64,000 nt of DNA from a candidate division WOR-3 bacterium (GTDB taxonomy: Bacteria; Hydrothermota; Tepidihabitantia; SM23-42; JAOAFX01). Location of the stretch: positions 25,434-89,433 of the forward strand of contig JBBILZ010000001.1 of assembly GCA_037444665.1 (NCBI GenBank), in the 5' to 3' direction. Shown here one piece after another: positions 5,332 to 62,826 of the stretch. A program made the translations under genes and the position numbers. The notes below the pieces were generated by a model that worked only from the letters and a program-made list of their open reading frames with translations, was not told the DNA's origin and did no database searches. The first letter of the stretch is position 1. The number at the start of each line of letters is the position of its first letter.

Positions 5332-5372
5332 TTATAATTCAGGTATTCAGGCATTTTTGATTTTCAGGTTGT

Positions 5373-6419
5373 TTACTTTTCTCCATACCGATAATATGCA
5401 GCACAAGACCCTTCAGATGAAACCATACAGGCACCAACTGGACTGCCCGGAGTACACTTTTTGCCAAATAGTGGGCACTCGTGTGGAATCTTTAGCCCTA
5501 ACAAGACCTTACCACAGATACAACCCTTTGGCTTTTGCACCTCAGGAATTTTAATATCATATTTTTTTGTAGCATCAAATCGCTGATACAATTTTTTTAA
5601 TGTAAGTCCAGATTCAGGGATAATACCAATCCCGCGCCATTGCGAATCCACTGGCTCAAATACTCTATCAAGCAATTTTAAGGCAGTTGTATTACCTTCG
5701 GGTTTGACCACCCGGTTATATTCAATCTCTATATACGCCTGGTTTTTGCATATCTGCTCAACCAAATTTTTAATCCCTAATAGTATATCAATCGGTTCAA
5801 AACCTGTAATACAACCAGGTATGTGATATTTTTCTGCAATCAAGGTGTATGGTTTTGAGCCAATAATCGTTGAAACATGTCCGGGCAAAATAAAACCATT
5901 GACATTGAGCCGGGGCGATTGAGCAATAAATTCCAGGGCAGGCGGAATAATTTTGAACGCAGGAATTATATAAAAATTTTTGATATCTTTTTTTTCAGCC
6001 TCAAGAATGGTTGCGGCGACTGTGGGCGATGTGGTTTCAAAACCTACGCCGATAAATACTACATCTTTGTGTAAATTGTCCTGAGCAATAGCCAGCGCAT
6101 CCATTGGCGAATAAATAATCTTTGGATGATAAATTTCAAGGCTACCTTGCGAACCGGGCACACGCACCATATCACCGAATGTCGTAATTATCACATTTTT
6201 TTGCCGGGCAAGTTCTATGGTCCAATCAATAATGTTTTGTGGTGTTACACAGACCGGGCAACCAGGTCCAGAAAGGAGTTTTAAATTCTTCGGCATCATC
6301 TTTCTTATACCTGCACGGGCAATTGCCATGGTGTGCGTTCCACAAACCTCCATCAGAGCAATAGGTTTCTTTACATTATTCCTAATCTGCCTGACAATTT
6401 CTTCAACTGGATTTTTCAT
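5373..6419 (-). CDS. hypD: [NiFe]-hydrogenase maturation factor HypD
   Basis: 348 aa with the HypD motifs EVCGTHT and GPGCPVCVTP, and a C-terminal Fe-S CxxC...CxxC region ending CMVSSEGSCAAY. Confidence 0.85.
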   Translation of the reverse strand: MKNPVEEIVRQIRNNVKKPIALMEVCGTHTMAIARAGIRKMMPKNLKLLSGPGCPVCVTPQNIIDWTIELARQKNVIITTFGDMVRVPGSQGSLEIYHPKIIYSPMDALAIAQDNLHKDVVFIGVGFETTSPTVAATILEAEKKDIKNFYIIPAFKIIPPALEFIAQSPRLNVNGFILPGHVSTIIGSKPYTLIAEKYHIPGCITGFEPIDILLGIKNLVEQICKNQAYIEIEYNRVVKPEGNTTALKLLDRVFEPVDSQWRGIGIIPESGLTLKKLYQRFDATKKYDIKIPEVQKPKGCICGKVLLGLKIPHECPLFGKKCTPGSPVGACMVSSEGSCAAYYRYGEK

Positions 6420-8101: not shown

Positions 8102-9556
8102 ATGGCGTGGCAAGGCGAACTGATTAAATTGGATGAATACCATTATAAAATACCAAAAACTTATAAAAGCGGTATGAAAACCGATGGCATTATATTTGCT
8201 TCTCCAAAGATGCTGGAAAAGATAAAAGAGGACCTGGCACCTGAACAGGTAGCAAATGTCGCAACCCTTCCTGGTATTGTTGGCTATTCACTGGCAATGC
8301 CTGATATCCATTGGGGCTATGGATTTGCCATTGGTGGTGTGGCAGGATTTGATATAAAAGAAGGTATTATCTCACCAGGTGGTGTTGGTTATGATATAAA
8401 TTGTGGTGTAAGACTTCTCAGAACAAATCTCAAGTATGCAGAAATAAAAAATAGAATAAAGGACCTGGTGCAGGCAATCTTCCATAATGTACCATCTGGT
8501 GTTGGTTCTACAGGCAAAATTAGAATTGACGAGCGTGAGGTAAAAGAGGTTCTGTTATATGGTGCTCAATGGGCATTAAAAAAAGGCTATGGCTGGAAAC
8601 GGGATATTGATAAGATAGAAGAGAATGGAATGTTGAAAGGTGCAAATCCAGAAAAGGTTTCAAAGAGGGCAATTGAAAGGGGTAGACCCCAATTGGGCAC
8701 ACTCGGTGCAGGAAACCACTTCCTTGAAATCCAGATCGTAGAAGATATTTATGATACTGAAGCAGCAAAAATTATGGGAATCTATGAAACCGGTCAGATA
8801 ACTGTTATGATACACACTGGTTCAAGAGGGCTTGGTTATCAAATCTGTGATGATAATGTAAAAACACTGGGTAATGCAGTGCATAAGTACGGCATAAATA
8901 TTCCTGATAGACAACTTGCCTGCGCACCGATTGAATCTCCCGAAGGAAAATCTTATTTTGAACAGATGGCTTGTGCAGCAAATTACGCCTGGGCAAATCG
9001 TCAGTGTATAATGCACTGGGTGAGAGAGGCATTTGAAAAGACCCTGAACAAAAAAGCAGAAGATTTAGAAATGGAACTCATTTATGATGTTGCTCATAAT
9101 ATTGCCAAATTTGAGGAACATCAGGTAGCAGAACAGATAAAAAAAATTTGCGTTCATCGTAAGGGCGCAACCAGGGCATTTGTGGCTGGGCACAAGGATG
9201 TTCCAGAGGTTTATAAAAAGATTGGACAGCCAGTCTTAATACCTGGTGATATGGGCTCACACTCTTATCTATTATTAGGGACAGAACAGGCAATGAAAGA
9301 AACATTCGGCTCAACCTGCCATGGTGCAGGAAGGCTGCTTTCCAGAACAAAGGCACTTGATGTAACCAGAGGAAGAAGGATTGATAAGGAACTTGAGGCA
9401 AAAGGAATCTTTGTCCTCTGCGCATCAAATGATGTTTTAAGAGAAGAAGTTCCAGAAGCATATAAAGATATTGATGTGGTGATTGAAGCAGTTGTAGGTG
9501 CGGGAATATCAAAAAAGGTAGCCCGTATGAGACCACTCGGTGTGGTGAAAGGTTAA
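8102..9556 (+). CDS. rtcB: RNA-splicing ligase RtcB
   Basis: RtcB motifs (GVGYDINCGVR, HxGSRGLG). I moved the start to the ATG at 8102 (MAWQGEL), which has an AAGGAGG ribosome-binding site 7 nt upstream. The ORF track begins at an upstream TTG at 8084. Confidence 0.9.
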   Translation: MAWQGELIKLDEYHYKIPKTYKSGMKTDGIIFASPKMLEKIKEDLAPEQVANVATLPGIVGYSLAMPDIHWGYGFAIGGVAGFDIKEGIISPGGVGYDINCGVRLLRTNLKYAEIKNRIKDLVQAIFHNVPSGVGSTGKIRIDEREVKEVLLYGAQWALKKGYGWKRDIDKIEENGMLKGANPEKVSKRAIERGRPQLGTLGAGNHFLEIQIVEDIYDTEAAKIMGIYETGQITVMIHTGSRGLGYQICDDNVKTLGNAVHKYGINIPDRQLACAPIESPEGKSYFEQMACAANYAWANRQCIMHWVREAFEKTLNKKAEDLEMELIYDVAHNIAKFEEHQVAEQIKKICVHRKGATRAFVAGHKDVPEVYKKIGQPVLIPGDMGSHSYLLLGTEQAMKETFGSTCHGAGRLLSRTKALDVTRGRRIDKELEAKGIFVLCASNDVLREEVPEAYKDIDVVIEAVVGAGISKKVARMRPLGVVKG

Positions 9557-14067: not shown

Positions 14068-14664
14068 TCAAAATCTACCGAATTTAAAGGTCAGATGGCA
14101 CGCTCCATTGCTTAATGCTTTATCACTGATACCATCAAGGTCAGTGCCATAGATATAGCGATATGAACCACCAAGGTCAATACGAAAACATCTTGTAACA
14201 TTTAAGGTCAATTCAGCACCGGGTTCAAATACAAAAACAGCATCGTCATACCAGGGTTCAAAATAATCCGTGCGGTAACATATATCACCTCCACCGATTA
14301 ATGAACTGATGCCAAAGTGAATCATCCTGCGTGAGCCAAATATCCATTCTAAGATCAAACCTCCATAACCAAAATCCATATAATAATCCCTTAATGGATA
14401 ATCTGTATGCACCACGACCCTGTTCACAAGGCCATATCCACCACCACCAATGGCAAATGTATGATTCAAAACGATTGCTCCACGACCACCAAAAAAACAA
14501 GCAAAATCATTATTCAGTTCAGTAAATTTTATGACCGGACCACCAAATATGCCTTTCTCTACAGGACCCTTAATTAGAACCTCGTCCTGTTTCTCTCTGG
14601 GCACAATCTCAACCGCACCAAACCCATAATAATTGAGCAATATAAATCCCAATATCAGATTCAT
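14068..14664 (-). CDS. putative outer-membrane beta-barrel protein (hypothetical)
   Basis: 198 aa with a signal peptide, Gly/aromatic-rich beta pattern and a C-terminal ...FKFGRF ending in Phe. Strong AAAGGAGG ribosome-binding site. Confidence 0.5.
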   Translation of the reverse strand: MNLILGFILLNYYGFGAVEIVPREKQDEVLIKGPVEKGIFGGPVIKFTELNNDFACFFGGRGAIVLNHTFAIGGGGYGLVNRVVVHTDYPLRDYYMDFGYGGLILEWIFGSRRMIHFGISSLIGGGDICYRTDYFEPWYDDAVFVFEPGAELTLNVTRCFRIDLGGSYRYIYGTDLDGISDKALSNGACHLTFKFGRF

Positions 14665-14775
14665 TATACCTCCTTTTAAGGTTAAATCCTACCATAATAA
14701 AAGGCAAAATCTGTGCCAGTCTTTTACTTGAAATTTCGTGCTAAAGTATGGTGCAGTTGTTCAAAAATTGTAATA

Positions 14776-14794
14776 TCTGCACAATTTTTGTGCA
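14776..14794. promoter_or_regulatory. candidate operator: 17-nt perfect palindrome TGCACAATTTTTGTGCA (18/19 nt with flanks) inside the -35/-10 spacer of the 14664 gene
   Basis: Seen in sequence. The core is identical to the 19-nt palindrome ATGCACAATTTTTGTGCAT at 35815..35833. On the minus strand it sits between TTGATG (-35-like) and TATTAC (-10-like), 17 nt apart. Confidence 0.45.
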
Positions 14795-14831: not shown

Positions 14832-15887
14832 TTAATTACTCTTTGGACTAAGGCGCTTGCGTATAAATTCTGCCCTTTTTACATCCCGCTCCTGTTCCTC
14901 AAGAATTTCGCCATAGAATAATTGAATATTCCCTGGCCTCGTGATAAGCATTATCTCATTAACCGTCTCTATATCAATATCTTTTATCAATCCTAATCCT
15001 ATACCCAACCTGACTGCAGAAAGAAGATTCAGAACCTCATCACTATTGATTAACCTTGCTGAACGGAGTATAGCAACACTGCGATATATCTTGTCCTCAA
15101 GTTCATTCTTTGCCCGACTCATTATCACATCCCTTGCCTTTTTTTCAACATCAATCAACATCCGTGCAAATTTATTTATCTTTTCAATCAATTCATCTTC
15201 TTTGAATCCAAGCGTATGTTGATTTGATATCTGAAACAGGTTGCCTTTTATTTCGCTTCCCTCACCATATATCCCGCGGACCATCATACCAAGATTTAGG
15301 GTGCTCTTTAATATCTTGTCAATCTCATTGGTATACACGAGTCCGGGAAGATGGAATAATACTGACGCCCTCAAGCCAGTGCCAAGATTTGTTGGGCAGG
15401 AAGTGATAAAACCATAATTATCATTAAATGCATAACCCAATTCCATGCCCAGAATCTCTTCAACTTCGTATACCTCACTGGCAAGATTTGTCAGATTCAA
15501 ACCACAGGATAGACCCTGAATCCTCAAATGGTCTTCTTCATTAACCATTATGGTAATATTCCCTTTTTCACTGATAAAAACTGCGGTTGGCTGTTCCTTT
15601 TTAATAATTGCTGGTGAAATGAGGTGTGATTCAAAAAGGGATTCTCGTTCCAGACCTTTGATATTCTTTATCAATAGATACTTTCCTTTTAAATTCATCT
15701 CTATTGCTGAACCAACAATCTGAACAAGTTTCTCTGCATCTGCTTGTTTCAATTTGATTTCAAAATGCATTCCTTCAATATTTCTTGCCACCCTGATGCG
15801 TGTGGAAACAACAATCTCATTCTCTTCACACTGCCTGCTCAGTTCAGGAGAAACCAACCACTTTATGTTATCAAACATTTTCCACAC
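14832..15887 (-). CDS. mcsB: protein-arginine kinase McsB
   Basis: 351 aa. Phosphagen-kinase signature CPTNLGTGLRASV and a C-terminal dimerisation region. Confidence 0.8.
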   Translation of the reverse strand: MWKMFDNIKWLVSPELSRQCEENEIVVSTRIRVARNIEGMHFEIKLKQADAEKLVQIVGSAIEMNLKGKYLLIKNIKGLERESLFESHLISPAIIKKEQPTAVFISEKGNITIMVNEEDHLRIQGLSCGLNLTNLASEVYEVEEILGMELGYAFNDNYGFITSCPTNLGTGLRASVLFHLPGLVYTNEIDKILKSTLNLGMMVRGIYGEGSEIKGNLFQISNQHTLGFKEDELIEKINKFARMLIDVEKKARDVIMSRAKNELEDKIYRSVAILRSARLINSDEVLNLLSAVRLGIGLGLIKDIDIETVNEIMLITRPGNIQLFYGEILEEQERDVKRAEFIRKRLSPKSN

Positions 15888-16344
15888 CCAGTGTTTTCAA
15901 TTTATCCCTTATCTGTGCTGCGTCTTCGTAGGCTTCTTTCTCAAGGGCACGGCGCAATTCTTCACGTAGTCTAAAGATTTCAATTGCCCGGCGACCACCA
16001 GTCTTTGCCCTTTTACCAATATGTTTCTCACTCTCCTGCACTTCCTTTATCAATGCCTTGATATACGGCTCAAAAACTGAGAGGCAATTACTGCATCCAA
16101 ACCTACCTATTTTCTTGAATTCAGCAAGACTTAAACAACAGACCGAACAGATCACCCTGTCATCATCATGGCTTATTTTCTCTGATATCTTATGGAGCAG
16201 TTCAATGGGCGATGGTTTCTTATCATTCAATAAATTTCTTTTGCGCGCACACTCCTCACACAGATGGAGTATATTTTCTTGATCGCCGACGACATTCTTA
16301 AAAAAATGTTTCGCAGGCTTTTGCTTGCAATCATCACATAGCAT
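15871..16344 (-). CDS. mcsA: McsA-like activator of McsB (zinc fingers plus UVR domain)
   Basis: 157 aa. Two CxxC pairs (CDDC...CEEC and CSVC...CSNC) and a C-terminal UVR motif EAYEDAAQIRDKLK. Overlaps mcsB. Confidence 0.7.
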   Translation of the reverse strand: MLCDDCKQKPAKHFFKNVVGDQENILHLCEECARKRNLLNDKKPSPIELLHKISEKISHDDDRVICSVCCLSLAEFKKIGRFGCSNCLSVFEPYIKALIKEVQESEKHIGKRAKTGGRRAIEIFRLREELRRALEKEAYEDAAQIRDKLKTLGVENV

Positions 16345-19670: not shown

Positions 19671-20975
19671 TTATGATTTTTTATAACAGAGCCTTGCCCA
19701 GTCAAATGCCTCAACAACATATTTGATAAATCTTCTCAACTCATTCTGATGTTTTCTGAATGCGGTATTAAGGATATTCTCACACAATTTTTGTTCTATT
19801 TCAAAATCTACATATGCAGTTTTGTATATACACAATAGATTATCAAAGATTATTTCAAAATCACCCCTGCTGAATTTTCTTAACAACACTTTATTTTTAA
19901 TAAATCTCGTGGTCCAATCATCTTCCGCGGGGGTTGTGGCAATTACCAGTAGAATATTTGTTTCTTTATAGGCATAGGGCGTGGGACGAACACGATTATG
20001 TAGCAGACGGTCATCAATCTTTTTCATATCTTTGTCATTCAAGGCAATACGTACCAACCCTTCAAGAAATGCCATACCCCTTTGTTGGAAATGATACTCC
20101 CAGATATGGTTCAACTCCTCAAATTCATCAATGATAATTACCAGACCACTGAGTCCAATCTGTTTTGTCAGATAACTGATACCACTGAGAATATAATTAT
20201 AAAAATCTGCAGCCGTAGAAAAATCATACAATGCCGGGATCTGCTGTCCACCCTTTATCCGATAAGGTGCTTCATGGTCTGTTGCATATTCTTTTGTAGA
20301 TTCGCCTTCTATCCATTGATAAAAGACTTCACTATATTTATCATTATCATCTTGCATATCTTTAATTTTTTTGAGGACCGGGGTTAAAAAACAATGGTCA
20401 GGCATCGGTATTTCAACTGATTGCCTCAATAAGTCACGGAATCCATATTCACAATTATCTTTGATAAATCTTAAACTATACACAAGTTCGTGATATATTT
20501 TTTTCGGCCGATACGGTGGGGTTTCCTGAATATGGAGCACACAATAGGTTGTAGCCACACCCTGTCTTAATGATAGATGCCGGAGGTATTCAGCAAGATG
20601 GGTCTTTCCTGAGCCATATTCACCCTCAATTAAAAAGACACCACCGCTCCCCTTTTTTAAATTATCCAGTGATTTCTGAAACAGGTCTATTTCATATGCC
20701 CGACCAAAGGTAAAGTGTTCAATACCCTGATATGGAACAACGCCCATTCTGAGCGCCTCAATTATCCTTCGGGACGAAATTCTGTCTAATTCTATTTCTT
20801 CAACATTCAGTTTTTTTAGCCATTTTGTCGGAAGCCAGAGGACCAATCCACTACGGAATTGGACGCGGGACTCAATATCGTTCCATCTTGTTTCAAGGAC
20901 CACGCCTTCACCAAAAATATTATGGACAACTATGTTAAAATTCTTCTTGTTCAACTTCTTCTTTTTCTTTATCAA
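19671..20975 (-). CDS. P-loop NTPase of unassigned family (paralog A)
   Basis: 434 aa. Walker A GEYGSGKTHL near residue 120 and Walker B LVIIIDEFEEL near residue 285. The ~160-aa spacing is atypical for AAA+. Its N-terminus overlaps the 3' end of paralog B by 41 nt. Confidence 0.6.
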   Translation of the reverse strand: MIKKKKKLNKKNFNIVVHNIFGEGVVLETRWNDIESRVQFRSGLVLWLPTKWLKKLNVEEIELDRISSRRIIEALRMGVVPYQGIEHFTFGRAYEIDLFQKSLDNLKKGSGGVFLIEGEYGSGKTHLAEYLRHLSLRQGVATTYCVLHIQETPPYRPKKIYHELVYSLRFIKDNCEYGFRDLLRQSVEIPMPDHCFLTPVLKKIKDMQDDNDKYSEVFYQWIEGESTKEYATDHEAPYRIKGGQQIPALYDFSTAADFYNYILSGISYLTKQIGLSGLVIIIDEFEELNHIWEYHFQQRGMAFLEGLVRIALNDKDMKKIDDRLLHNRVRPTPYAYKETNILLVIATTPAEDDWTTRFIKNKVLLRKFSRGDFEIIFDNLLCIYKTAYVDFEIEQKLCENILNTAFRKHQNELRRFIKYVVEAFDWARLCYKKS

Positions 20976-22191
20976 GGAGCTCTGCTACACGCGCCTTGAA
21001 TATTGTCATTGCTGTATTTTTGTCAATCGGTTGATTGTTCTCTCTTATCCTCTGAAATGCCTCAATTATTCCCACAACAAAAGTGCGGCGATAAAATATA
21101 TCAAGTATCTGTTTTTCAAGAACCGCTGCAATCATATTTTTTAGGGAGATTGAAAGGGTATTTGAATCAAATTCAAAATTATATGCAGATTCAAATACTT
21201 TTGCCAGCCTCTCCCCTAATTTTTGTAAAAATTCTTCTGGATTCATCTCTATCTTTTCCAGGTCAATTTTAACTCCGGTAGGATTTATCTTTGTAAAACT
21301 TGAGCGCAACCTCTGTTTCAATGCCTCATATACTCCACCTGTCCCTTCAAGCAAAAGATGTTCATCAGGGACCGCATAAAAGAATATAGCACCGGGCAAT
21401 CGGGAATTTCCACACTCGTCAATAATCTGGCGGAGATTGTCCAGGGCACGGCGTTTATCCTTTGTTGAAGAGATGCTCATACCCCTCTCTGCCTCATCAA
21501 ATAAGAAAATAATACCATTATAACCGATTATATTCACAAATTGGATAAAACTCCTTAGCATCCTGAAGGCAGTAGAGCGGTCTATCCTTTCTGCAATACG
21601 ATGTTGCAGTTTCAATTCTCTTACTATATCCTCACCCTTTAACCACTGGACTAAAGAATAAAATCTTTCCTCATCATCAGCCGCAAGGCTCTTGAGTGCT
21701 TCTTTAATACAATTTGTATAACTTGTGCTTTCAAGATTTTTTATGAGTGAAGCAAAATCTCTATCATCGCGAACACGATAATACCATTTACGAAGCAAAG
21801 CCTCTATACCTAATTCCCAGGGGCTCAGCATCTCCTGTTCTGTCAAAGGTGTGCTGATATTTGAAACAATCTTTTTATAGACCAATTCCAGCCTATCAAA
21901 TGGACATTCTGTAGCGCTCAATGATACATAACTTGTAATATAATTGTATTTCCAGGCAAGGTTTCTGATTGAATATAAAAAATGTGTCTTACCTCCACCA
22001 TAATTGCCCGTAATCAATTTAAATGTAGAGATGCTCTGCCTGCCCGGAAAATTAAAATAGTCATTTTCTAACACATTCAAATAAGGTTCAAGCCCGACTG
22101 TAAAATATTCAATGCCAAATTCAGGTGGCGTTCCAAAACCACCGAGTTTATCTATTATTCTTCTTGCAATCACTTGATTTATCCTGCTCAT
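20935..22191 (-). CDS. P-loop NTPase of unassigned family (paralog B)
   Basis: 418 aa. Walker A GNYGGGKTHF near residue 70 and Walker B IIFLFDEAERG near residue 230. Clear paralogy to A around both motifs. Confidence 0.6.
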   Translation of the reverse strand: MSRINQVIARRIIDKLGGFGTPPEFGIEYFTVGLEPYLNVLENDYFNFPGRQSISTFKLITGNYGGGKTHFLYSIRNLAWKYNYITSYVSLSATECPFDRLELVYKKIVSNISTPLTEQEMLSPWELGIEALLRKWYYRVRDDRDFASLIKNLESTSYTNCIKEALKSLAADDEERFYSLVQWLKGEDIVRELKLQHRIAERIDRSTAFRMLRSFIQFVNIIGYNGIIFLFDEAERGMSISSTKDKRRALDNLRQIIDECGNSRLPGAIFFYAVPDEHLLLEGTGGVYEALKQRLRSSFTKINPTGVKIDLEKIEMNPEEFLQKLGERLAKVFESAYNFEFDSNTLSISLKNMIAAVLEKQILDIFYRRTFVVGIIEAFQRIRENNQPIDKNTAMTIFKARVAELLDKEKEEVEQEEF

Positions 22192-22205
22192 ATCCTCTCA
22201 ACTCC

Positions 22206-22226
22206 TTACTACTTACTACCTACTAT
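22206..22226. repeat. TAC-tract repeat fragment (ttactacttactacctactat)
   Basis: Same motif as in the A, B and 57.66 kb copies. Overlaps the stop of the 22216..23097 gene and supplies the AAGGAG ribosome-binding site of NTPase B on the minus strand. Confidence 0.5.
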
Positions 22227-23097
22227 CCTTCTCTATCGCCATATATCCATAATAAGTCCCTTCACCTTCTTCATCATCAGGTATCCAGATTGCCTGTTTT
22301 TTATCTGTGGTTGCATCAAATGTTGCAACATATAGATGAATAGATTTCTGAGTGAATTCAGATTTTTTAAAAAGATACAAAAGATAAGCAAGTTCTACCC
22401 TTGAAAATTCACGATAGTTCTCTTTCCTGGGGTCAATAAAAAACTGCGGTGGTTGTTGTAAGAACACATACTCATCCAATACATCTACGAGAAGCACCTT
22501 TTCTCCATACGGTCGATTCAACAGGTTCAACCTTCTTTTGTATGCACTTTCAAGGTCAAGATAAAATTCCTTTGGGTCAAATTTTTTCTTTTTCAATTCT
22601 TCGTCAAATTTTTTTATAGTCTGATAGACTGTTTCCGGTTCAAGAGGGATTTTGGACTTTAATTTCTCAATCTGTGGTCCAAAATACAGGGCTGCCTCGC
22701 CAAATTCAAAGTTTAAAACAAGGGTATAAAAACCGACTCTTAATATTGGATACTGGCCCTTTATTATTCTGTTATCCTGTTGGAAAAGTGTTTTGAGTTT
22801 TTCACCGAATGCAAAGCGAAATTCCTCTTTTGCCTTTTCAACCTCTTTCTTTTCCTGATTGAGCCAGTCAATTAACTGGTTTTTCAAATCAAATTCTGCA
22901 AGGCTATTCGCAATTTTTAAGAGTTCAGAAACTCTTTTCTCCATAATATAGGCATTATCTACTGGACTCTCTTTTAATTTCGCATAGTCGTTTATCAATT
23001 TTGTTATTTTACCTGCTGCCTTTATCAATCCCTTGAATCCTTCTACAATCTCTTTCATTAGCAGCAATATAATAACCAAAAATATACCCGATGTCAA
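22216..23097 (-). CDS. hypothetical protein, first gene of the NTPase A/B operon
   Basis: 293 aa with no motif I recognise. A short hydrophobic N-terminus is followed by K/E-rich helical regions. Co-directional and close to NTPases B and A. Confidence 0.5.
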   Translation of the reverse strand: MTSGIFLVIILLLMKEIVEGFKGLIKAAGKITKLINDYAKLKESPVDNAYIMEKRVSELLKIANSLAEFDLKNQLIDWLNQEKKEVEKAKEEFRFAFGEKLKTLFQQDNRIIKGQYPILRVGFYTLVLNFEFGEAALYFGPQIEKLKSKIPLEPETVYQTIKKFDEELKKKKFDPKEFYLDLESAYKRRLNLLNRPYGEKVLLVDVLDEYVFLQQPPQFFIDPRKENYREFSRVELAYLLYLFKKSEFTQKSIHLYVATFDATTDKKQAIWIPDDEEGEGTYYGYMAIEKDSR

Positions 23098-23342: not shown

Positions 23343-25898
23343 ATGAGTGAAAAACTTGCCCGCTTAGGCAAAGAAGGGGCAGAAGAAGTAAACAAGATAA
23401 TCAACTCCTTTTTTGCTCCACTCATCAGTGTCGTGTATAAGTGGGATGGAGATATTTATCGGTTTGGTGGCGATGCTTTCTTAGCATTCTTCCCTGAAAT
23501 GCCGGCAAAAGAGTTATCAAGCAAAAGGGCACTGAAAGCGGGTATTGAGATTTCAAAATTTGTTAAAGCCCATGAAATAACAAAGACCAAAGTAGGCTCA
23601 TTCAAAATCAAAATCCATATCGGGTTGACAAAAGGCAAGATCTATTTTCAGGACCTGAAAAATAATTTCTTTCTTGGTGGCAGGATAGTAAATGATTTAA
23701 TGAAAATGATTGACCTTGCTGGTCCTGGTCAGATTGTTGTCAGCTCTGATGTTAAAAAAGAACTACCTGAAGTAAGTTTTACACCAAAAGAGGATACCTG
23801 GCAATATCTCGGAATGAAAATGAAACCGGCTAAAACACAGACAGAAATTAGTAAATTCTCCCCTAAAATATCTGATGATAAATTTACTACACTAAAAAAT
23901 TATATTCCTGATTGGTTACTTAAAAGGATTGAATTGAAACCACATTTTGACCACAAGGATGGAGAACATAGAAAGATTGCGGTCATCTTTTTGCATTTTG
24001 CCGGTATCCCCTATGATAAAAATCCTAAACAGGCGAGCGCAATGCTGGAGAGATTGTATAAAATTGTGAGCCAGTCAGTAGAAAAATACGACGGCTGGAT
24101 AAATGCAATTGATATCTATAAAGACAGCGAAAGATTTCTTGTGGTCTTTGGTTTTCCCAAAATTTATGAAGATGATGAAAAGAGGGCTGTTCTTTTTGCC
24201 TATGAAATTCTGAACCATCCTGAATTAAAACGGTTGCATTTGAGGGCAGGGATAAACTCGGGTTCAGTCTTTGCCGCACCCGTAGGCAGTGAATTGAGGC
24301 GTGAATATGCAACATTGGGTGATGCAGTAAATCTTGCAGCAAGGCTTGCTGCCAAAGCACAGAACCAAACAATTGTAGCAAGCGAACCCATATTTAATAA
24401 AACATTTGGACTCTTTGATTATGAATTTTTAGGTGAACAGGAATTTAAAGGGAAAAAGAAAAAGATTAAGACATATAAGATAATCAGAAAAAAACAGATT
24501 GAAAAGAAGGCACTGACAAGATGGCTCTCTGAAAGTGAAAAGATTGTTGGTAGAGATAAAGAAATTAAAAAGATGCAAAACCTTGTCAGTTTATGTTCTA
24601 CGGGAAAGGGACAGATTCTCGGAATTACTGGTGAGCCCGGGGTCGGAAAATCAAGACTGGTTCAGGAACTTATTAAATTTACAGAAAAGGCAGGATACTA
24701 TATTGTTAAAGGTGATTGCATTTCCTATGGCAGTGCCTTTTCATACCATCCCTGGGTAGAAATTTTAGAACAATTTTTTGATATTTCATCCAGCGATTCC
24801 TTAAAAATACGCACTAATAAAATAAAAGAGAAGTGCATCAGTGTTGATAAAAAACTTACTCAGTGGCTGCCAGTAATTGGCGAGGTTATGGGTGTTCCAT
24901 TCTTAGAAACATCACTCACAAAATACTTAGATGCCAAGATAAAAAAACAGCGTGTTTTTGATATTATCTTTGACTTCTTGAAATTTGTTGCCCGGACCAA
25001 ACCAGTAAATGTAATTATTGAAGACCTGCACTGGGCTGATACTGCTTCAATGGAACTTGTGAATTATATTGGTAGAAACATTGAGGATAAACAGATACTT
25101 TTAACACTGGTCTATCGTCCATTAAAGAAAAAAGAAGAATTTATGGAGAAGGGCTGGACAACTGAATTGAGTTTAAAAGAACTTTCAAAAGAAGAGAGTA
25201 TTGAGCTCGTTCAACTTTTACTCAATATCAAAAATATCCCTGATGACCTGAAAAAAATTATTATTGAAAAATCACAGGGGAACCCTTTTTATATTGAAGA
25301 ACTCGTAAAATCACTGATTGAGCAGGGCTATGTGATTGAAGAAAAAGGAACATGGAAATTTAAGGGTGATATAAAGAAACTTCAATTACCTGATACACTT
25401 GAGGCGGTTATCTTATCAAGGATTGACCGACTTGACCTGGAAGACCGTGATGTATTGCAGACCGCTTCAGTCCTGGGCAGGGAGTTTGATGAATTCTTGC
25501 TTGAACAAATATTCCCTGCGCCACAACTATTAAAAAAATCCCTTCATAATCTTGAGCGCCTTGATTTGATAAAACAGGAAGACAGCAAAGGAAAAAGGCA
25601 TTACTTTTTCAAACATATCCTCACCCAGGAGGTTGCATATGGTACCCTGTCTTTTGCCCGCAAACAAGAACTCCATCGCCAGACCGGCAGATTTATAGAG
25701 ACTGAACTTAAAGACCGAAAAGAAGAATTTCTGGGTCTGCTCTCTTACCACTTCTATGCGGGTGGAGATTATGATAAATCTCTGCTCTATTCAGTTGAAG
25801 CAGGTGAAAAGGCAAAAAAGGTCTATGCCAATGAAGAGGCAATAGAATTCTTCACCCGGGCAATTGATTCATACGAAAGATTGGAAGGAAAGATATAG
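23343..25898 (+). CDS. tandem class III nucleotidyl cyclase domains, STAND (AAA_16-type) ATPase and the start of a TPR region
   Basis: CHD1 carries the metal-binding Asp motifs (LLFADISGFT, GDAFLAFF), while CHD2 carries the N/R motifs (GDAVNLAARL). Walker A GITGEPGVGKSRL, then GNPFYIEEL and TASVLGREF, typical of MalT/AfsR-like ATPases. The conserved LLFADISGFT motif is encoded from about 23289, upstream of the first in-frame ATG/GTG/TTG at 23343, so the true 5' end is unresolved. Confidence 0.7.
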   Translation: MSEKLARLGKEGAEEVNKIINSFFAPLISVVYKWDGDIYRFGGDAFLAFFPEMPAKELSSKRALKAGIEISKFVKAHEITKTKVGSFKIKIHIGLTKGKIYFQDLKNNFFLGGRIVNDLMKMIDLAGPGQIVVSSDVKKELPEVSFTPKEDTWQYLGMKMKPAKTQTEISKFSPKISDDKFTTLKNYIPDWLLKRIELKPHFDHKDGEHRKIAVIFLHFAGIPYDKNPKQASAMLERLYKIVSQSVEKYDGWINAIDIYKDSERFLVVFGFPKIYEDDEKRAVLFAYEILNHPELKRLHLRAGINSGSVFAAPVGSELRREYATLGDAVNLAARLAAKAQNQTIVASEPIFNKTFGLFDYEFLGEQEFKGKKKKIKTYKIIRKKQIEKKALTRWLSESEKIVGRDKEIKKMQNLVSLCSTGKGQILGITGEPGVGKSRLVQELIKFTEKAGYYIVKGDCISYGSAFSYHPWVEILEQFFDISSSDSLKIRTNKIKEKCISVDKKLTQWLPVIGEVMGVPFLETSLTKYLDAKIKKQRVFDIIFDFLKFVARTKPVNVIIEDLHWADTASMELVNYIGRNIEDKQILLTLVYRPLKKKEEFMEKGWTTELSLKELSKEESIELVQLLLNIKNIPDDLKKIIIEKSQGNPFYIEELVKSLIEQGYVIEEKGTWKFKGDIKKLQLPDTLEAVILSRIDRLDLEDRDVLQTASVLGREFDEFLLEQIFPAPQLLKKSLHNLERLDLIKQEDSKGKRHYFFKHILTQEVAYGTLSFARKQELHRQTGRFIETELKDRKEEFLGLLSYHFYAGGDYDKSLLYSVEAGEKAKKVYANEEAIEFFTRAIDSYERLEGKI

Positions 25899-27027
25899 AT
25901 TGCGGACACAAGATTATCTGACAGAAGATAAATGTAGTTCAGTTAGACAAAGTGAACAAGTGAAAAGTATTCGCCAAAATCTATTAATAAAAGCCCTCAG
26001 AGGCAGAGCAGAGATTAATTATTTAACAGGAAAAATTGACGAAGGCATAAGAGATTATACACAGATACTCCAAGAATATGGTGAGAAGAATAGAGACGGA
26101 AATTTTTTTACAATGTTGGATACGATGATTCATATTGCTAATCTTCTGGCGGTTGGAAAGAGTGATTTTTCAGGGGCACAAACACTGATAAAAAAAGCAT
26201 TTAAAAAATTGGGCAAAAAAATGAATACCCGTACCTATGCCCGTGGTCTAAATTGTCTGGGTATAATTTTTAGGCGCCAAAGTAAATATGTTCAAGCACT
26301 AAGTCATTTCAGAAAAGCCTTACGCATATATCAGACTTTAAAAGAAAAAGAAGGTATCGCCGGTGTTTACTCTAACATTGCGCTTACCTATTTTAACAAA
26401 GGTAATCTTGATATTGCACTGAAATATTATAAAAAATGCTTCATTCTATGCCGAGATTCAAATGACCTGCCGACCATAGGAACAACCCTGGGCAATATCG
26501 GCCTTGTTTATCAGGAAAAGCGTCAATATGATAATGCTTTAAAGTACTATAAAGATTATTATGCACTGTCTCTAAAATCAGGCCATAAATTGGGTGTCAG
26601 TATTGCTTTAAGAGACATTGGCGCAATTTATGAAAAAAAATGTTTTTATGATAGGGCATTAGAATATTACAAGAAATCTCTTACTATAGCCGAAGAGATA
26701 AATGCACAAAGAGAAATCGGCATTGTTTCCGGACTCATTGGCTTCACATATAAAGAGCAGGGAGACTTTACCAATGCACTAAAATATTTGACCAGGGCGC
26801 TATCTATATTTGAAAAAATCTCTGATAAAAAACGGTTGGGTTTTGCTTTTATGCATTTAGGGATGGTCTATAGCGAACTCAAAAAATTTGAGGTAGCAAA
26901 ACAGTATCTCAATCAGGCTCAAAAAATTTTTGAAGATATCGGTGATAAAATATCTCTGTCCCGTGTTTTTACCTTGCTCTCAAAATTGGAGACCACACAG
27001 GGGAACGATAGTTACAATGAAAGATAA
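25864..27027 (+). CDS. TPR-repeat protein, paralog 1 (5' overlaps the cyclase ORF in another frame, 3' cut by an in-frame TAA)
   Basis: 387 aa of 34-residue TPR units (e.g. GNIGLVYQEKRQYDNALKYYK). The homology to paralogs 2 and 3 begins near SIRQNLLIKALRGRAE, with a possible GTG start around 25953. A TAA at 27025-27027 is followed in frame by the conserved C-terminal module. Confidence 0.55.
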   Translation: MIHTKDWKERYRLRTQDYLTEDKCSSVRQSEQVKSIRQNLLIKALRGRAEINYLTGKIDEGIRDYTQILQEYGEKNRDGNFFTMLDTMIHIANLLAVGKSDFSGAQTLIKKAFKKLGKKMNTRTYARGLNCLGIIFRRQSKYVQALSHFRKALRIYQTLKEKEGIAGVYSNIALTYFNKGNLDIALKYYKKCFILCRDSNDLPTIGTTLGNIGLVYQEKRQYDNALKYYKDYYALSLKSGHKLGVSIALRDIGAIYEKKCFYDRALEYYKKSLTIAEEINAQREIGIVSGLIGFTYKEQGDFTNALKYLTRALSIFEKISDKKRLGFAFMHLGMVYSELKKFEVAKQYLNQAQKIFEDIGDKISLSRVFTLLSKLETTQGNDSYNER

Positions 27028-27045
27028 ATATTTTTCTCAACAATC

Positions 27046-27258
27046 TTGAAGACTCGTGTGAGACTTGAATATGCAAAATCTCTTTACGAACTTGGGAAAG
27101 TATACCTAACTTGTCGTGAAACGTGGAACGTGAAAGGTAAAACGGCGAAAAAGGCGTTACAATATTTAAAAGAAGCAGAAAAGATTTTCAAAAAAGCAGG
27201 TGCTGAATTGTGGTTGAAGAAAACCAGCGACTTAATAAATCAATTACCCAATTATTAA
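27046..27258 (+). other. orphaned C-terminal module of TPR paralog 1, same frame and separated by a single in-frame stop
   Basis: The 70-aa ORF VRLEYAKSLYELGKVYL...AGAELWLKK matches the C-terminus of paralog 3 (LELAKSLYELGKVYL...AGAELWLKK). Its frame is identical to 25864..27027. Confidence 0.5.
27073..27221 (+). repeat. ~149-bp direct repeat, copy 1 (3' module of the TPR paralogs), about 85-90% identical to 29999..30148
   Basis: Aligned by eye: gcaaaatctctttacgaacttgggaaagtata...gcaggtgctgaattgtggtt. Confidence 0.7.
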
Positions 27259-35728: not shown

Positions 35729-35766
35729 ATTTAGGTATTTAGGCATTTTGGACTTTTAGGCATTTT
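35729..35766. repeat. intergenic repeat copy C, module 2 (tttaggcattttggacttttaggcatttt)
   Basis: 29/29 identical to 62664..62692 in copy B. Confidence 0.6.
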
Positions 35767-35814
35767 ATTTTATAAGTCATGGTCATTTAAGTTTACCGCA
35801 CAAGTTTTAGTATA

Positions 35815-35833
35815 TATGCACAATTTTTGTGCA
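35815..35833. promoter_or_regulatory. candidate operator: 19-nt perfect palindrome ATGCACAATTTTTGTGCAT about 80 nt upstream of the FN3-lipoprotein operon
   Basis: Core identical to 14776..14794. Confidence 0.45.
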
Positions 35834-35911
35834 TTATTTATGAAAAACTCCCGAAATTTCAAGGCTTTAACCTGGCACAGGATTTGCATATTATATTGGC
35901 AGAGGTGCCAA

Positions 35912-36682
35912 ATGAAAAGAATAAAAGATTCCCTTCAATTGATTCTGGTCGCATCCGGGCTAATTTTTTCGCCCTGCTGTTATGAAGAAGCAGACAATGA
36001 GCCACCTGCAGTTCCCAGAGGTTTGAATTCCATTACTGGTGACGAACAAGTGATGCTCACCTGGTATCAGAATACTGAACCTGACCTTGCTGGTTATAGG
36101 GTCTTTCGCAGTCCTGCACCAGAAGGACCTTATTATCTTATCGGTGAAACAAACTTAGATTATTTCCTTGATTATGGTTTAATGAACGGACAAACCTATT
36201 TCTATGCAATCTCTGCTTATGACATACATAATAACGAAAGTGAACTTTCTTATGAGACGGTCTATGATACACCCAGACCCGAAGGATTTGATGAAAAAAT
36301 CTTTGATTATACTGAATACCCTGCGTATGCTGGTTGGGACTTCAGCAATTATACAGTAGTTCCATACAATTATTCAAACTGTGATTTTTATTTTGGTTAT
36401 GACGATTACAATAATTCTTATTATTTCTTCATTGGTAAGCCCGGTGGATTGATTCAGGATATGGGTTATACCTATTCTTTTGATGAGATTGGTTATGCGC
36501 CTGATGATGGTTGGTCTCCAACCGGCATTGCACAAGCCATTGAAGGCCATACCTATGTTATCTGGACCTGGGACAACCATTTTGCCAAAGTCCGTATCAC
36601 ATCAATAAAATCTGATTATGTCGTGTTTGACTGGGCATACCAGGTTGACCCGGGTAACCCGGAACTGGTGAGGAAAAAATGA
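35912..36682 (+). CDS. secreted or lipoprotein-like protein with a fibronectin type III domain
   Basis: Start set at MKRIKDSLQLILVASGLIFSPCC, which has an AGAGGTG ribosome-binding site. The ORF track starts at 35816, inside the operator. FN3-like segment PPAVPRGLNS...LTWYQNTEPDLAGYRVFRS...TYFYAISAYD. Confidence 0.55.
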   Translation: MKRIKDSLQLILVASGLIFSPCCYEEADNEPPAVPRGLNSITGDEQVMLTWYQNTEPDLAGYRVFRSPAPEGPYYLIGETNLDYFLDYGLMNGQTYFYAISAYDIHNNESELSYETVYDTPRPEGFDEKIFDYTEYPAYAGWDFSNYTVVPYNYSNCDFYFGYDDYNNSYYFFIGKPGGLIQDMGYTYSFDEIGYAPDDGWSPTGIAQAIEGHTYVIWTWDNHFAKVRITSIKSDYVVFDWAYQVDPGNPELVRKK

Positions 36683-36723
36683 AAAATAATCTGCATTTTT
36701 GCAGAGCAACAAAGGAGGTTAAA

Positions 36724-37698
36724 ATGAAACGCTTATTTTTACTCACCCTTGCCGCAATCCCACTATTTGCATTCAGTGTCAATTTCATCTACTGCGATTA
36801 TGATTATGATGATGACTACTGGAACGATGAATACTGGTATCCTGAACCCGATTATTATGATGACTACTGGGTCTATTACCCACATGGCTATTATTGTGTT
36901 TACTATGTGTGGTACCATCCCTGGTGGTGGGATTGGTATTGGTGGCATTGCCATTGGTGCCACCATTTTGACTGGCACTTTTTCCGTGCTGGTTTCTATG
37001 TTGTCTGGTATGAAGACGGATGCTGGTGGTTCAGACCGAGATATGGCAGGTGGGTACGATACAAAGTTCCCTATGCCTATAATGAATTCAGATATAAAGC
37101 AAGGTCCTATGGAGTCAATCTTCCAGAAAAGCCCACAAGGGAAATTAATATTCCTTATAATGAAAAAGAGATTCAACGCCTGACAAAAGAAAAGGACCCA
37201 CAACTATATGCACGCATAGAAAAAGAGTACAGGTCAGGGAACCTGGACAGAATGAAGCAAGAATACGAAACAAAAGTAAAAAGAGAAATTGCAGTGAAGA
37301 ATGAAGAATACAGAAAAACAAAATTACAAAACCCGGCTGATGAACGATATAATACAGGCAAGGATGTAAATAATAAAACAATTGACCGAAGAAAATCTGA
37401 TTCTTATAATGATGATAGGCAAAAGTCAGATTATAATGAGTCAAGAATAATAAAGAAGTCTAAAAATGTGCCTGACAATGATACTGAAACTCCTGAAAGA
37501 TATGACGAATCTGATAATAGAAAATACGAGCAAAAAAAGAATTACACAGCACCAGACAAGTCTAAACAAACTGAACGCGGAGACGAATACAACGCACCAA
37601 AAACTCCAAAAACACCAATCAGAAACCTACCCCCACCTGACCAGGAACAGGAAAAAAGAACGGTTAAAAAACAGAGTGTGCAAAAATCAAGGAGATAA
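36724..37698 (+). CDS. secreted Trp/Tyr/His/Asp-rich low-complexity protein with a Lys/Glu/Arg-rich C-terminal tail (novel)
   Basis: Start at MKRLFLLTLAAIPLFAFS with an AAGGAGG ribosome-binding site. The ORF track starts at 36679, which overlaps the upstream stop in an ATGA. About 100 residues with roughly 16 Trp, 28 Tyr, 7 His and 4 Cys (e.g. YHPWWWDWYWWHCHWCHHFDWHFF). An antisense ORF exists but lacks these supports. Confidence 0.55.
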   Translation: MKRLFLLTLAAIPLFAFSVNFIYCDYDYDDDYWNDEYWYPEPDYYDDYWVYYPHGYYCVYYVWYHPWWWDWYWWHCHWCHHFDWHFFRAGFYVVWYEDGCWWFRPRYGRWVRYKVPYAYNEFRYKARSYGVNLPEKPTREINIPYNEKEIQRLTKEKDPQLYARIEKEYRSGNLDRMKQEYETKVKREIAVKNEEYRKTKLQNPADERYNTGKDVNNKTIDRRKSDSYNDDRQKSDYNESRIIKKSKNVPDNDTETPERYDESDNRKYEQKKNYTAPDKSKQTERGDEYNAPKTPKTPIRNLPPPDQEQEKRTVKKQSVQKSRR

Positions 37699-37700
37699 AA

Positions 37701-38348
37701 ATGTTCACCACCATATTTTTCTTAATCATCAGCATAAATACAGAAACAGTTGCGATGACTACTCCGGACAATTCATTAAATATTGAGAGCTGGCTTAATA
37801 AAGACGAACCCGTATATGTCCCTGGTGAACGACTGAAAATCTTCTTTAAGGTGGATAAGGACTGCTATGTCGCAGTCTATGATATTGATGTTGGGGGAAG
37901 GGAAAATCTTCTCTTCCCCCAGCAAGGGGACAATGGATTTGTTCAGGCAAATAAGGTCTATGAACTACCCCCTGCAGATGCAGATTTTGATTATGAGATA
38001 ACCGGCCCTGAAGGCATAGAAAAAATTATTATTCTTGCCTCAATTAAAGAATTGCCTGACCTTGCTGATACCATAGAAGTATCAAAAAGAGAAATTGAGC
38101 TATCCATTGAAGAACCAGAGCCAGCAAAACTGAGAATTATCTCAACACCTCCCAAATCCAGGATCTATATCAAAGAAGTAATGACTGGCGAGCGTGTTTA
38201 TGTCGGAAAAACACCACGGACCATTGTCTTAAAGCCTGGCGAATATATTGTGGAGATAAAAAAATTAGGGTATCAGACCATTAAAAGGCGAATCTGGCTT
38301 GAGCCGGAAGAAAAAAGAAGGATCTATGTTAGTCTATGGCCCTGGTAA
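37701..38348 (+). CDS. secreted protein with a DUF4384-like domain and a C-terminal PEGA domain
   Basis: 215 aa. Signal peptide, VYVPGERLKIFFKVDKDCYVAVYDIDVGG (DUF4384-like, from memory) and a PEGA-like IISTPPKSRIYI...GKTPRTIVLKPGEYIVEIKKLGY. Starts 3 nt after the upstream stop. Confidence 0.45.
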   Translation: MFTTIFFLIISINTETVAMTTPDNSLNIESWLNKDEPVYVPGERLKIFFKVDKDCYVAVYDIDVGGRENLLFPQQGDNGFVQANKVYELPPADADFDYEITGPEGIEKIIILASIKELPDLADTIEVSKREIELSIEEPEPAKLRIISTPPKSRIYIKEVMTGERVYVGKTPRTIVLKPGEYIVEIKKLGYQTIKRRIWLEPEEKRRIYVSLWPW

Positions 38349-38390
38349 TCTTGACAAACCAATTATATTTTATATAATTGAGGAGTTAAA

Positions 38391-38759
38391 ATGAATAGAA
38401 TATTCTTAAGCATTATCTTTATTCTCGGTAGTTTATGGGCAGTGAAACCTGTGCCCAGAATTGAAAAAACAGATGAAGACAAAAAACCTGTTATACAGAT
38501 TCAGATTCCTGATGAGAATAAAGAGGACCAAAAAGAACAGAATAATAATTCTTTAGAGACTAACAAACCAAAGAACCAGAATAATAAAAATGACCAGTTC
38601 ATTGATAGTGACTCAAATAATGTAAATGACCAGCGTGAAAATGACCTGTTAAAGATAAAACAATTGAAAAACAAATTTAAGGACCTCTTCAAAAAAGATA
38701 GCGACACAGATAGAAAACCCAAAGAACCAGTAAAAACAAAGAAATCTGTTAAAAAATAG
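38391..38759 (+). CDS. secreted Lys/Asn/Gln/Asp-rich low-complexity protein
   Basis: 122 aa. Signal peptide followed by a KNQDE-rich, probably disordered, polypeptide. Confidence 0.4.
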   Translation: MNRIFLSIIFILGSLWAVKPVPRIEKTDEDKKPVIQIQIPDENKEDQKEQNNNSLETNKPKNQNNKNDQFIDSDSNNVNDQRENDLLKIKQLKNKFKDLFKKDSDTDRKPKEPVKTKKSVKK

Positions 38760-46289: not shown

Positions 46290-46344
46290 ATAGCCTCCAC
46301 AAAATTATATATAACTCTGTTGGCCTGTCAATAAAATATTCATA

Positions 46345-46383
46345 ATAAAAAACCCGCCCCTTAAAATTTTTTAAGGGGCGGGC
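46345..46383 (-). terminator. rho-independent terminator, bidirectional hairpin, downstream of the 989-aa gene
   Basis: cccgcccctt-aaaatttttt-aaggggcggg, with a T-tract on the minus strand (A-run at 46345-46352 on the plus strand). Confidence 0.65.
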
Positions 46384-46402
46384 ACATAGTAAGATGCGGT
46401 TT

Positions 46403-49342: not shown

Positions 49343-49524
49343 TTCATCTCCTTTTTTTCTGCAAAAGAACACACCAGAATACTATTATTCTGGATATTTG
49401 GTTGTATTTTTTTTGCTATCACCCCCTTTCAATTTTTTTGTCATGTTTGTAAATTCTAATAACAATATATTATAATCAAAAAATGGAAAATGTCAATACC
49501 CATTTTACCCTCAGTTGTTATTCG

Positions 49525-62706: not shown

Positions 62707-62826
62707 AGATACCGGTATGGTTATTGGGCATGGTCTATTTAGTCTTTTTGGTCTATTTTGTTTCTCTGGTCTTTCTGTTTCTGTTATTTTCTACATACTA
62801 CTTACTACCTACTACCTACTCATCCA
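62634..62826. repeat. intergenic modular repeat element, copy B
   Basis: Hairpin gcccgatttatcgggc, tttaggcattttggacttttaggcatttt, agggcatag, ccggtatggttattgg, ggtctatttagtcttttt and a TAC tract. See copy A. Confidence 0.6.

Follow-up and report, generated by a model that had tools for sequence, protein, structure and literature searches.

Within the 64-kb stretch of WOR-3 DNA analysed here (the window), two transcription units encoding predicted envelope proteins are each preceded by a copy of the same palindrome, TGCACAATTTTTGTGCA. The first unit, on the minus strand (14068..14664), codes for a 198-aa protein ending in F, predicted to form an eight-stranded outer-membrane beta-barrel of the OmpA-TM/OmpX/Ail type. 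Pfam gave no match for this protein; its AF2 model (pLDDT 88.7) matched OmpA-TM, NspA, Ail and OmpX in a Foldseek comparison with the PDB, and its family comprises 121 members from WOR-3, Zixibacteria, Fidelibacterota, Ignavibacteria and other groups. The second unit is a four-gene operon on the plus strand (35912..38759), coding for an FN3 lipoprotein (35912-36682), a Trp/Tyr-rich (W-rich) exported protein (36679-37698), a DUF4384+PEGA protein (37701-38348) and a 122-aa ORF (38391-38759). An N-terminal FN3 is the sole recognisable domain of the lipoprotein; its C-terminal beta domain yielded no informative match, and an NCBIfam search returned nothing for any of the target proteins. The start at 35816 given by the longest ORF of the FN3 gene is an artefact, as that ATG lies within the palindrome. 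The gene order FN3 / W-rich / DUF4384 is kept in close WOR-3 relatives, and the FN3-DUF4384 pair in many distant ones.

The palindrome occurs at 14778-14794 (site 1) and at 35817-35833 (site 2). An earlier note on this DNA had claimed exactly these two copies, and the claim was borne out even with up to three mismatches allowed, at which no third copy was found in the window and none of 100 shuffles reached the observed count. The looser pattern TGCACA-N5-TGTGCA, with up to two mismatches, recovered the same two positions only. The placement given for them was also correct: site 1 lies upstream of the barrel gene, and 78 nt separate the end of site 2 from the true ATG of the FN3 gene at 35912. 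Both copies are perfect 7-3-7 palindromes, TGCACAA-TTT-TTGTGCA, within a common stretch of 23 nt that differs at one position, ATAT[C/A]TGCACAATTTTTGTGCAT (repeat family D9). The half-sites had been described as 7-8 nt long; the 7-nt arms are indeed perfect in both copies, while the 8-nt arms of the 19-nt form, ATGCACAA-TTT-TTGTGCAT, are perfect at site 2 only (35816-35834), the outer pair at site 1 being C/T. A match of this kind had furthermore been considered vanishingly unlikely by chance. As regards a repeated 17-mer by itself this was too strong, first-order Markov simulations yielding 0-2 of them and the window containing 58, which stem from other repeats. As regards a repeated perfect 7-3-7 palindrome the claim stood: the window holds 16 such palindromes, TGCACAA is the sole arm that recurs, and pairs sharing an arm appeared in only three of 300 first-order Markov simulations. 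Lone half-sites TTGTGCA are at chance level in the window (17 vs 12.9 expected). The recurrence of the perfect palindrome is not due to chance.

The two best matches to a sigma-54 (-24/-12) promoter in the window are those found downstream of the two palindromes, and the -24 GG and -12 GC elements required before the gene are present at both sites. At site 1, the sigma-54-type promoter TGGCACAGATTTTGCC (14718-14703, minus strand) shows one mismatch, lies 59 nt from the palindrome and would start transcription near 14693; it is followed by the RBS AAGGAGG and the ATG at 14664. At site 2, TGGCACAGGATTTGCA (35873..35888, plus strand) is a perfect TGGCAC-N5-TTGCW and the only match to the sigma-54 pattern without mismatches in the window; it lies 39 nt from the palindrome, with a start inferred near 35898, and is followed by the RBS GAGGTG and the ATG at 35912. 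The 20-nt difference in spacing between the two sites is taken up at site 1 by a degenerate second copy, ATTACAATTTTTGAACA in minus-strand reading (14758..14774), which agrees with the palindrome at 12 of 17 positions at an offset of exactly 20 bp. Site 2 has in turn a weak distal element (35797..35813); its left half-site, CGCACAA (35797-35803), precedes the perfect palindrome by 20 bp. With the second copy at site 1 and the half-site at site 2, both promoters therefore have sites centred near -93 and -73, the offset between the tandem elements corresponding to two helical turns. These putative enhancer elements, to none of which a strand was assigned, differ in which of them is perfect: at site 1 it is the distal one (14778..14794, with its centre some 93 nt ahead of the inferred start), at site 2 the proximal one (35816..35834, core 35817-35833, centred about 73 nt upstream), the partner being degenerate or a half-site. 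The two palindromes have opposite orientations relative to their own promoters, the spacer being AAA in one case and TTT in the other; among relatives its sequence is variable and always A/T-rich.

A further element, the box CGAAATTTCAAG, is identical at both promoters and lies 9 nt upstream of TGGCAC in each (14727..14738 on the minus strand and 35852..35863 on the plus strand), where it may be a site for an architectural protein or for bending. Comparison by eye with the IHF site WATCAANNNNTTR gave a partial fit at site 2 only (TTTCAAGGCTTTA). A further sequence of the window, TGGCATTATATTTGCT at 8185-8200, was rejected as a sigma-54 promoter of rtcB; it lies inside coding sequence, the true rtcB ATG being 8103.

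The conservation of this arrangement was assessed in orthologous loci sampled independently of the motif. FN3 orthologues were collected through ortholog alignment, with no motif criterion, from 80 metagenome loci, 73 of which had usable upstream sequence. A sigma-54-like promoter (TGGCAC-N5-TTGC with up to one mismatch, in the interval -150..+60) was present upstream of 44 of these 73, where the remaining sequence of the loci would predict 0.31. Palindromes with up to two mismatches numbered 26 in 17.4 kb of sequence upstream of FN3 genes, vs two in 310 kb elsewhere (0.11 expected). Among the FN3 orthologues with at least 62% identity, all eight had the palindrome, at a spacing of 38-40 or 60 nt. 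Likewise, the palindrome was found in all four barrel orthologues (L129-L132, with 78, 68, 57 and 57% identity), also sampled without the motif, carrying 0, 1, 1 and 2 mismatches and located 59-60 nt upstream of TGGCAY-N5-TTGC. Absence from the orthologous promoters of related genomes had been named beforehand as evidence against a regulatory role, and the palindrome thus came through that test in both gene families. One of these barrel orthologues (L132) keeps the palindrome in a setting of different neighbouring genes that lacks mcsB, the gene that ends just before site 1 in the window; the element consequently belongs to the barrel promoter and not to the end of mcsB.

The related loci, 641 kb in total, contain 48 palindromes with up to one mismatch, and a strict sigma-54 match lies within 130 nt of 41 of them. 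Among the remaining seven, five are accompanied by a promoter slightly off the strict sigma-54 pattern; another, in L038, is an additional distal copy located 56 nt ahead of the main palindrome of that locus, and the last, at position 4406 of L006, is probably a chance match. The spacings between palindrome and promoter cluster at 38-39, 48-50, 59-60 and 69 nt, a ladder of about 10 bp which suggests a dependence on the face of the helix, its statistics being inflated by the kinship of the sequences and hence indicative only.

Complementarily, 185,579 genomes, one per species, were scanned for TGCACA-N5-TGTGCA followed after 35-65 nt by TGGCAC-N5-TTGC, which yielded 47 loci. Given that this pattern demanded palindrome and promoter together, the scan alone cannot prove their association, which is proved by the motif-independent ortholog sets. 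About 27 of the loci belong to WOR-3, Stahlbacteria or Zixibacteria MAGs, and among these 16 precede FN3-lipoprotein orthologues (43-98% identity) and one precedes a barrel orthologue. Two of the loci (L021 and L039) share one contig, JBBINQ010000006.1, and are near-identical to the two sites of the window. Several of those checked among the matches outside WOR-3 precede glnA, the ammonium transporter gene amt, a UrtA-type binding protein, an ANTAR response regulator or genes of similar kind, the glnA/amt-type matches falling in Proteobacteria and other phyla; these non-WOR-3 matches are classical nitrogen-regulated NtrC targets. The alignment of the 17 sequences of the 59/60-nt class (A1) revealed the second site at the same 20-bp offset, with a conserved right arm TTGTGC; the invariance of G48 and C51 in this second site does not stem from the pattern used in the scan. 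The same alignment conserves the box, with the consensus CCGAAATTTCA, and a C before TGGCAC, neither of them imposed by the pattern either. This box consensus is also conserved in alignment A4, and the box is present in the close WOR-3-type loci L048-L051, L056 and L057; in distant clades, inspected by eye and unscored, it is not evident. The last two of these close loci also carry distal half-sites, TTTGTGCT, homologous to that of site 2.

The sequence of the palindrome points to a particular class of binder. The motif of the window, TGCACAAnnnTTGTGCA, shares 15 of its 17 positions with the NtrC box of E. coli, TGCACCAnnnTGGTGCA, and has the same 17-bp dyad geometry; the agreement includes every position found to be strongly conserved by genomic SELEX, GCAnnA / TnnTGC (PMC8743547; for a table of Salmonella NtrC sites, see PMC4987338). 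In more remote FN3 orthologues this position is occupied by variants that differ between clades, namely TGAACAAnnnTTGTGCT, TCTACACAATGTGTATA and GTTCACAATTGTGAAC. At seven Zixibacteria loci, a gene of the architecture REC/Sigma54_activat/HTH_8 precedes the FN3 gene in the same orientation, and the variant TGAACAAnnnTTGTGCT is found ahead of the FN3 promoter. The gap between regulator and FN3 gene ranges from 123 nt (L104), where the palindrome starts 12 nt past the stop codon of the regulator, to about 1.6 kb with another ORF between (L077). One locus (L121) presents the whole series in order: a PAS-HisKA-HATPase kinase, a REC/Sigma54_activat/HTH_8 regulator, the palindrome, the sigma-54 promoter, the FN3 gene and the DUF4384 gene. 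The linked regulators are from Zixibacteria wherever the organism is named, and some are annotated by their sources as ZraR or HydG. A profile search with these bEBPs returned at least 8,000 matches, the names within the best 120 being all Zixibacteria with the exception of one Terriglobales. Against the NCBIfam NtrC equivalog TIGR01818 the Zixibacteria regulator scored 467.9 bits (cut-off 558.6), against ZraR 440 bits (cut-off 760) and against PrsR 442 bits (cut-off 503), and it was also below the AtoC and NtrX cut-offs. Being below all the equivalog cut-offs tested, the Zixibacteria regulators are to be regarded as members of the NtrC family and not as NtrC proper; they furthermore belong to another phylum than the window and flank a variant motif, not the exact TGCACAA form. 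Pfam detected no Sigma54_activat domain in essentially all the ORFs of the window, a scan of all loci for GAFTGA and Walker-A motifs found no bEBP adjoining the WOR-3 targets, and no protein with an RpoN box (rpoN) is encoded in the 64-kb window or in any related locus examined.

Several alternative explanations of the palindrome were considered in the light of these data. Short repeats are dispersed over intergenic regions of the window, one of them (35738-35771) some 45 nt ahead of site 2, and the palindrome might in principle be a functionless member of such a family or a repeat arisen by chance. The probability of this is negligible: the other copies of the dispersed repeats lack the palindrome, which is conserved at specific positions in orthologous promoters of different phyla, and the reading is refuted for practical purposes; membership of the dispersed repeat family, which the earlier note had named among the grounds that would refute its proposal, did not materialise. 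An RNA hairpin or intrinsic terminator, which at site 1 would end the upstream mcsB transcript, would be compatible with the modest predicted stability of the stems (-8.5 and -9.9 kcal/mol; z = -2.4 and -2.8), with one weak terminator-like call at site 2 and with the palindrome of site 1 starting 38 nt past the mcsB stop codon. Such an explanation is scarcely probable, since site 1 has neither a terminator call nor a U-tract, no co-directional gene ends upstream of site 2, the palindrome stays with the barrel gene at the locus lacking mcsB, and a fixed spacing to a downstream -24 element is unexpected for a terminator. Compared with known intrinsic terminators, the combination of a GC-rich stem, a U-tract and the end of a co-directional gene is found at neither site.

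The palindrome could alternatively be a Rex- or CRP/FNR-like operator that represses or activates and that at site 1 would occupy a sigma-70 spacer, TTGATG-17-TATTAC, as the earlier note had read it. Both hexamers are literally present on the minus strand, and the palindrome has the geometry expected for a dimeric HTH protein. We consider this very unlikely. The promoter scan does not call TTGATG/TATTAC, and the lone sigma-70-like call, TGCACA-16-TACAAT, is within chance expectation; the -35 hexamer is not conserved in the four barrel orthologues, in which the palindrome is preceded by ctaat, cataat, aattt and ccagt. No comparable sigma-70 arrangement exists at site 2, whereas a sigma-54 promoter is common to both sites. 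The Rex consensus is an 18-bp operator of 7-4-7 geometry, TTGTGAA-N4-TTCACAA, and those of CRP and FNR are TGTGA-N6-TCACA (5-6-5) and TTGAT-N4-ATCAA (5-4-5). The 7-3-7 palindrome of the window differs from Rex in arm sequence and spacing and from CRP/FNR sites in geometry and sequence, so that the resemblance suggested previously gives way to the much closer NtrC box; the search proposed for a regulator of these families ended negatively in the window, which encodes no CRP/FNR or Rex protein. A different possibility is that the palindrome binds a factor other than a bEBP, such as a dimeric HTH repressor or co-regulator, while the true bEBP acts from solution or from another site. No regulator was found in the window or in the WOR-3 loci examined, the conserved CGAAATTTCAAG box indicates at least one further element, and some bEBPs, those of group 5, act without binding DNA (PMC7175178, table). 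Against this, none of the strongly conserved positions of the NtrC box is altered in the site, the tandem 20-bp copies and the 10-bp ladder to the -24 element fit the geometry of an enhancer, and an HTH_8 bEBP is encoded beside the variant site in Zixibacteria; such a non-bEBP factor is unlikely, though it is the least improbable of the alternatives.

The explanation which most probably accounts for the palindrome is that it constitutes the enhancer (UAS) of a sigma-54 promoter, the predicted binder being an NtrC-family group 1 bEBP with a receiver, an AAA+ and a Fis-type HTH domain. The sigma-54 promoters downstream, the failure of the sigma-70 reading and the likeness to the NtrC box argue for the enhancer of an activator and not for a repressor operator in a promoter spacer. 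The broader proposal of the earlier note, a common cis-regulatory site for a predicted dimeric HTH protein controlling outer-membrane and surface genes, is upheld by this reading, and the site is kept in the orthologous promoters of both the barrel and the FN3 genes. The binding of a bEBP at the palindrome and the resulting activation are inferred. According to the proposed mechanism, a partner kinase would phosphorylate the activator, whose dimers, bound at the tandem sites, would seed assembly of the AAA+ ring. Bending of the short stretch between enhancer and promoter, which includes the CGAAATTTCAAG box, would then allow the ring to contact the sigma-54 holoenzyme in its closed state on TGGCAC-N5-TTGC, and ATP hydrolysis would open the promoter. 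Pairing of bEBP DNA-binding domains on one or more UAS and looping assisted by bending constitute the textbook mechanism (PMC7175178). The predicted output would be the co-ordinated production of envelope proteins, i.e. the eight-stranded barrel together with the products of the FN3-lipoprotein / W-rich / DUF4384-PEGA operon, to which relatives would add a DUF4476 protein, an Hsp20-like protein and a 334-aa exported protein preceded by the same module.

The closest parallel is found in the enteric NtrC (NR-I) boxes at glnAp2, glnHp2 and glnK-amtB, which share with the sites of the window a 17-bp dyad, outer arms TGCAC..GTGCA and an A/T-rich spacer, as well as the occurrence of two or more sites upstream of TGGCAC-N5-TTGC. 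TGCACAA-N3-TTGTGCA differs from the enteric TGCACCA-N3-TGGTGCA by one base per half-site, C to A, and the regulator class, REC-AAA+-Fis HTH, is that of enteric NtrC and also of the regulator linked to the FN3 gene in Zixibacteria relatives. In contrast, the sites of the window (-73/-93) are nearer to the promoter than the classical NtrC sites at glnAp2 (-108/-140), and the targets are envelope proteins, unlike those of the NtrC nitrogen regulon (glnA, amtB/glnK, amino-acid transport). Membership in that regulon is not shown; the element would nevertheless work like an NtrC enhancer. Among solved structures, the best matches of the Zixibacteria regulator are Aquifex aeolicus NtrC1 and NtrC4 (4l4u, E=5e-121; 1ny5; 3dzd), which have the same three-domain architecture and are group 1 bEBPs of a deep-branching, non-proteobacterial lineage. 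As in the ZraSR-ZraP and PspF-pspA systems and that of the PEP-CTERM regulator PrsR, a sigma-54 activator would here be dedicated to a few exported or envelope proteins; unlike in those systems, no ZraP, PspA or PEP-CTERM proteins are found among the targets. The arrangement is conserved across the uncultured WOR-3 lineage, yet as predicted it is a standard enhancer/sigma-54 switch and mechanistically conventional.

A wider hypothesis, which we advance tentatively and regard as somewhat short of an even chance, is that of a hitherto undescribed envelope regulon across several uncultured FCB-related phyla, controlled through sigma-54 by a dedicated NtrB/NtrC-like two-component system. WOR-3 would have retained an essentially NtrC-type box but shifted the regulon from nitrogen to the cell surface, with enhancer and regulator co-evolving within each clade. 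If this were true, the regulon would take in the FN3 lipoprotein and its DUF4384/PEGA companion, small outer-membrane barrels and proteins of the DUF4476 and Hsp20-like types; the site would have the form TGCACAA in WOR-3 and TGAACAA in Zixibacteria, with TACAC or TTCACA variants in other clades.

WOR-3, Stahlbacteria and Zixibacteria lack, to our knowledge, any cultured representative amenable to genetics, and our literature search returned nothing on sigma-54 or bEBP regulation in these three groups. The predicted combination of an enhancer, a sigma-54 promoter and a conserved box would provide a concrete regulatory module for uncultured lineages and the first regulon for those of WOR-3, Stahlbacteria and Zixibacteria. 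It would tie to one control circuit about 2,000 FN3-lipoprotein genes so far designated "hypothetical" together with a family of small outer-membrane barrels, and would be of use for the annotation of uncultured phyla. It would also represent a case of an NtrC-like DNA box outside nitrogen control, which fits the proposal that sigma-54 mainly controls the cell exterior (PMC3162934).

Apart from those of the FN3 and barrel genes, the scan recovered loci preceding a DUF4476 exported protein and an Hsp20-like protein. The window has no orthologues of these or of the 334-aa protein, the other WOR-3 targets. Rfam gave no match for loci in which a long leader follows the promoter module; in five genomes the module is followed by a structured leader of about 120 nt and then by a gene for an exported protein of 334-349 aa.

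Four different palindromes, GTTCACAATTGTGAAC, TCTACACAATGTGTATA, TCTATACAGACTGTACA and TGAACAATTTTTGTGCT, were found upstream of orthologues of the FN3 lipoprotein gene (35912-36682), each characteristic of its clade (read at the related loci L058, L068/L069, L073/L075/L112 and L077-L121), and all lie about 60 nt ahead of the sigma-54 promoter. With the position kept and its palindrome differing from clade to clade, the comparison suggests co-evolution of the enhancer and its regulator for a single conserved target gene. The arms of the window's palindrome recur exactly in an unclassified MAG (L036:1539-1694), as TGCACAA-ATT-TTGTGCA; the sigma-54 promoter of an ammonium transporter gene follows them at a distance of 64 nt. 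The TGCACAA variant of the box therefore serves true nitrogen control somewhere as well.

At five other loci (L005, L006, L017, L033 and L037), palindrome and sigma-54 promoter precede a leader of about 120 nt containing two conserved hairpins, GTCTTTnnnnAGAC and GCCGGCAG...CTGCCGGC, after which an exported protein of 334-349 aa is encoded, with a barrel-like look in its C-terminal half. The leader of these loci had no Rfam match, and the two-hairpin sequence could be a leader or a riboregulatory element. At L045 (775-1300), the box and a sigma-54 promoter accompany a palindrome of the perfect type, but the module strand carries no ORF for more than 2 kb and the sequence downstream is of low complexity; this module may direct a non-coding transcript.

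The possibility, raised in the earlier note, that the motif belongs to a dispersed repeat was not borne out, as the palindrome lies outside both families of short dispersed intergenic repeats of the window (TTTAGGCATTTTGGACTTTTAGGCATTTT / TTACTACTTACTAC...; copies at 5346-5379, 35738-35771 and 62663-62696, and in a second group at 22192-22238, 57652-57712 and 62788-62820) and outside the 7-9-nt micro-tandem arrays in several long intergenic regions (7813, 35428, 35727, 57664, 62662-62820). At L129, the barrel orthologue has a 'tttaggtgtttaggcat' stretch resembling these repeats inserted into its leader. Perfect 7-3-7 palindromes number 16 across the whole window, against about 7.3 expected from first-order Markov simulations; examples are those at 9813, 10785 and 24336, and another, CCCATATTTAATATGGG (8037), lies immediately upstream of rtcB. 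A sigma-54-like sequence, TGGCATTATATTTGCT (8185-8200), was rejected as a promoter: the true rtcB start codon is the ATG at 8103, which places the match within the coding sequence, and chance probably explains it. Near rtcB the window has no activator of the RtcR type; the divergent gene encodes a GAF-GGDEF protein.

The T9SS C-terminal sorting domain protein and the 989-aa Kelch / FlgD-Ig protein (45195-49372, minus strand), together with LptE (57597-58127), indicate a diderm source with type IX secretion. Genes for the protein arginine kinase McsB and for an McsA-like protein with a UVR motif form a pair (14832-16344, minus strand) here in an outer-membrane-bearing lineage; the pair comes after lysS and a LolCDE-like ABC/FtsX pair, adjoins neither ctsR nor clpC in the window, and its regional gene order is kept in the barrel-orthologue loci L129-L131. 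Elsewhere (19671-22191 and 23343-30169), two BrxC/BrxD-like ATPase ORFs stand side by side, followed downstream by an adenylate/guanylate-cyclase + AAA_16 protein and three TPR proteins, and a sequence of 188 nt is directly repeated at 27059 and 29985.
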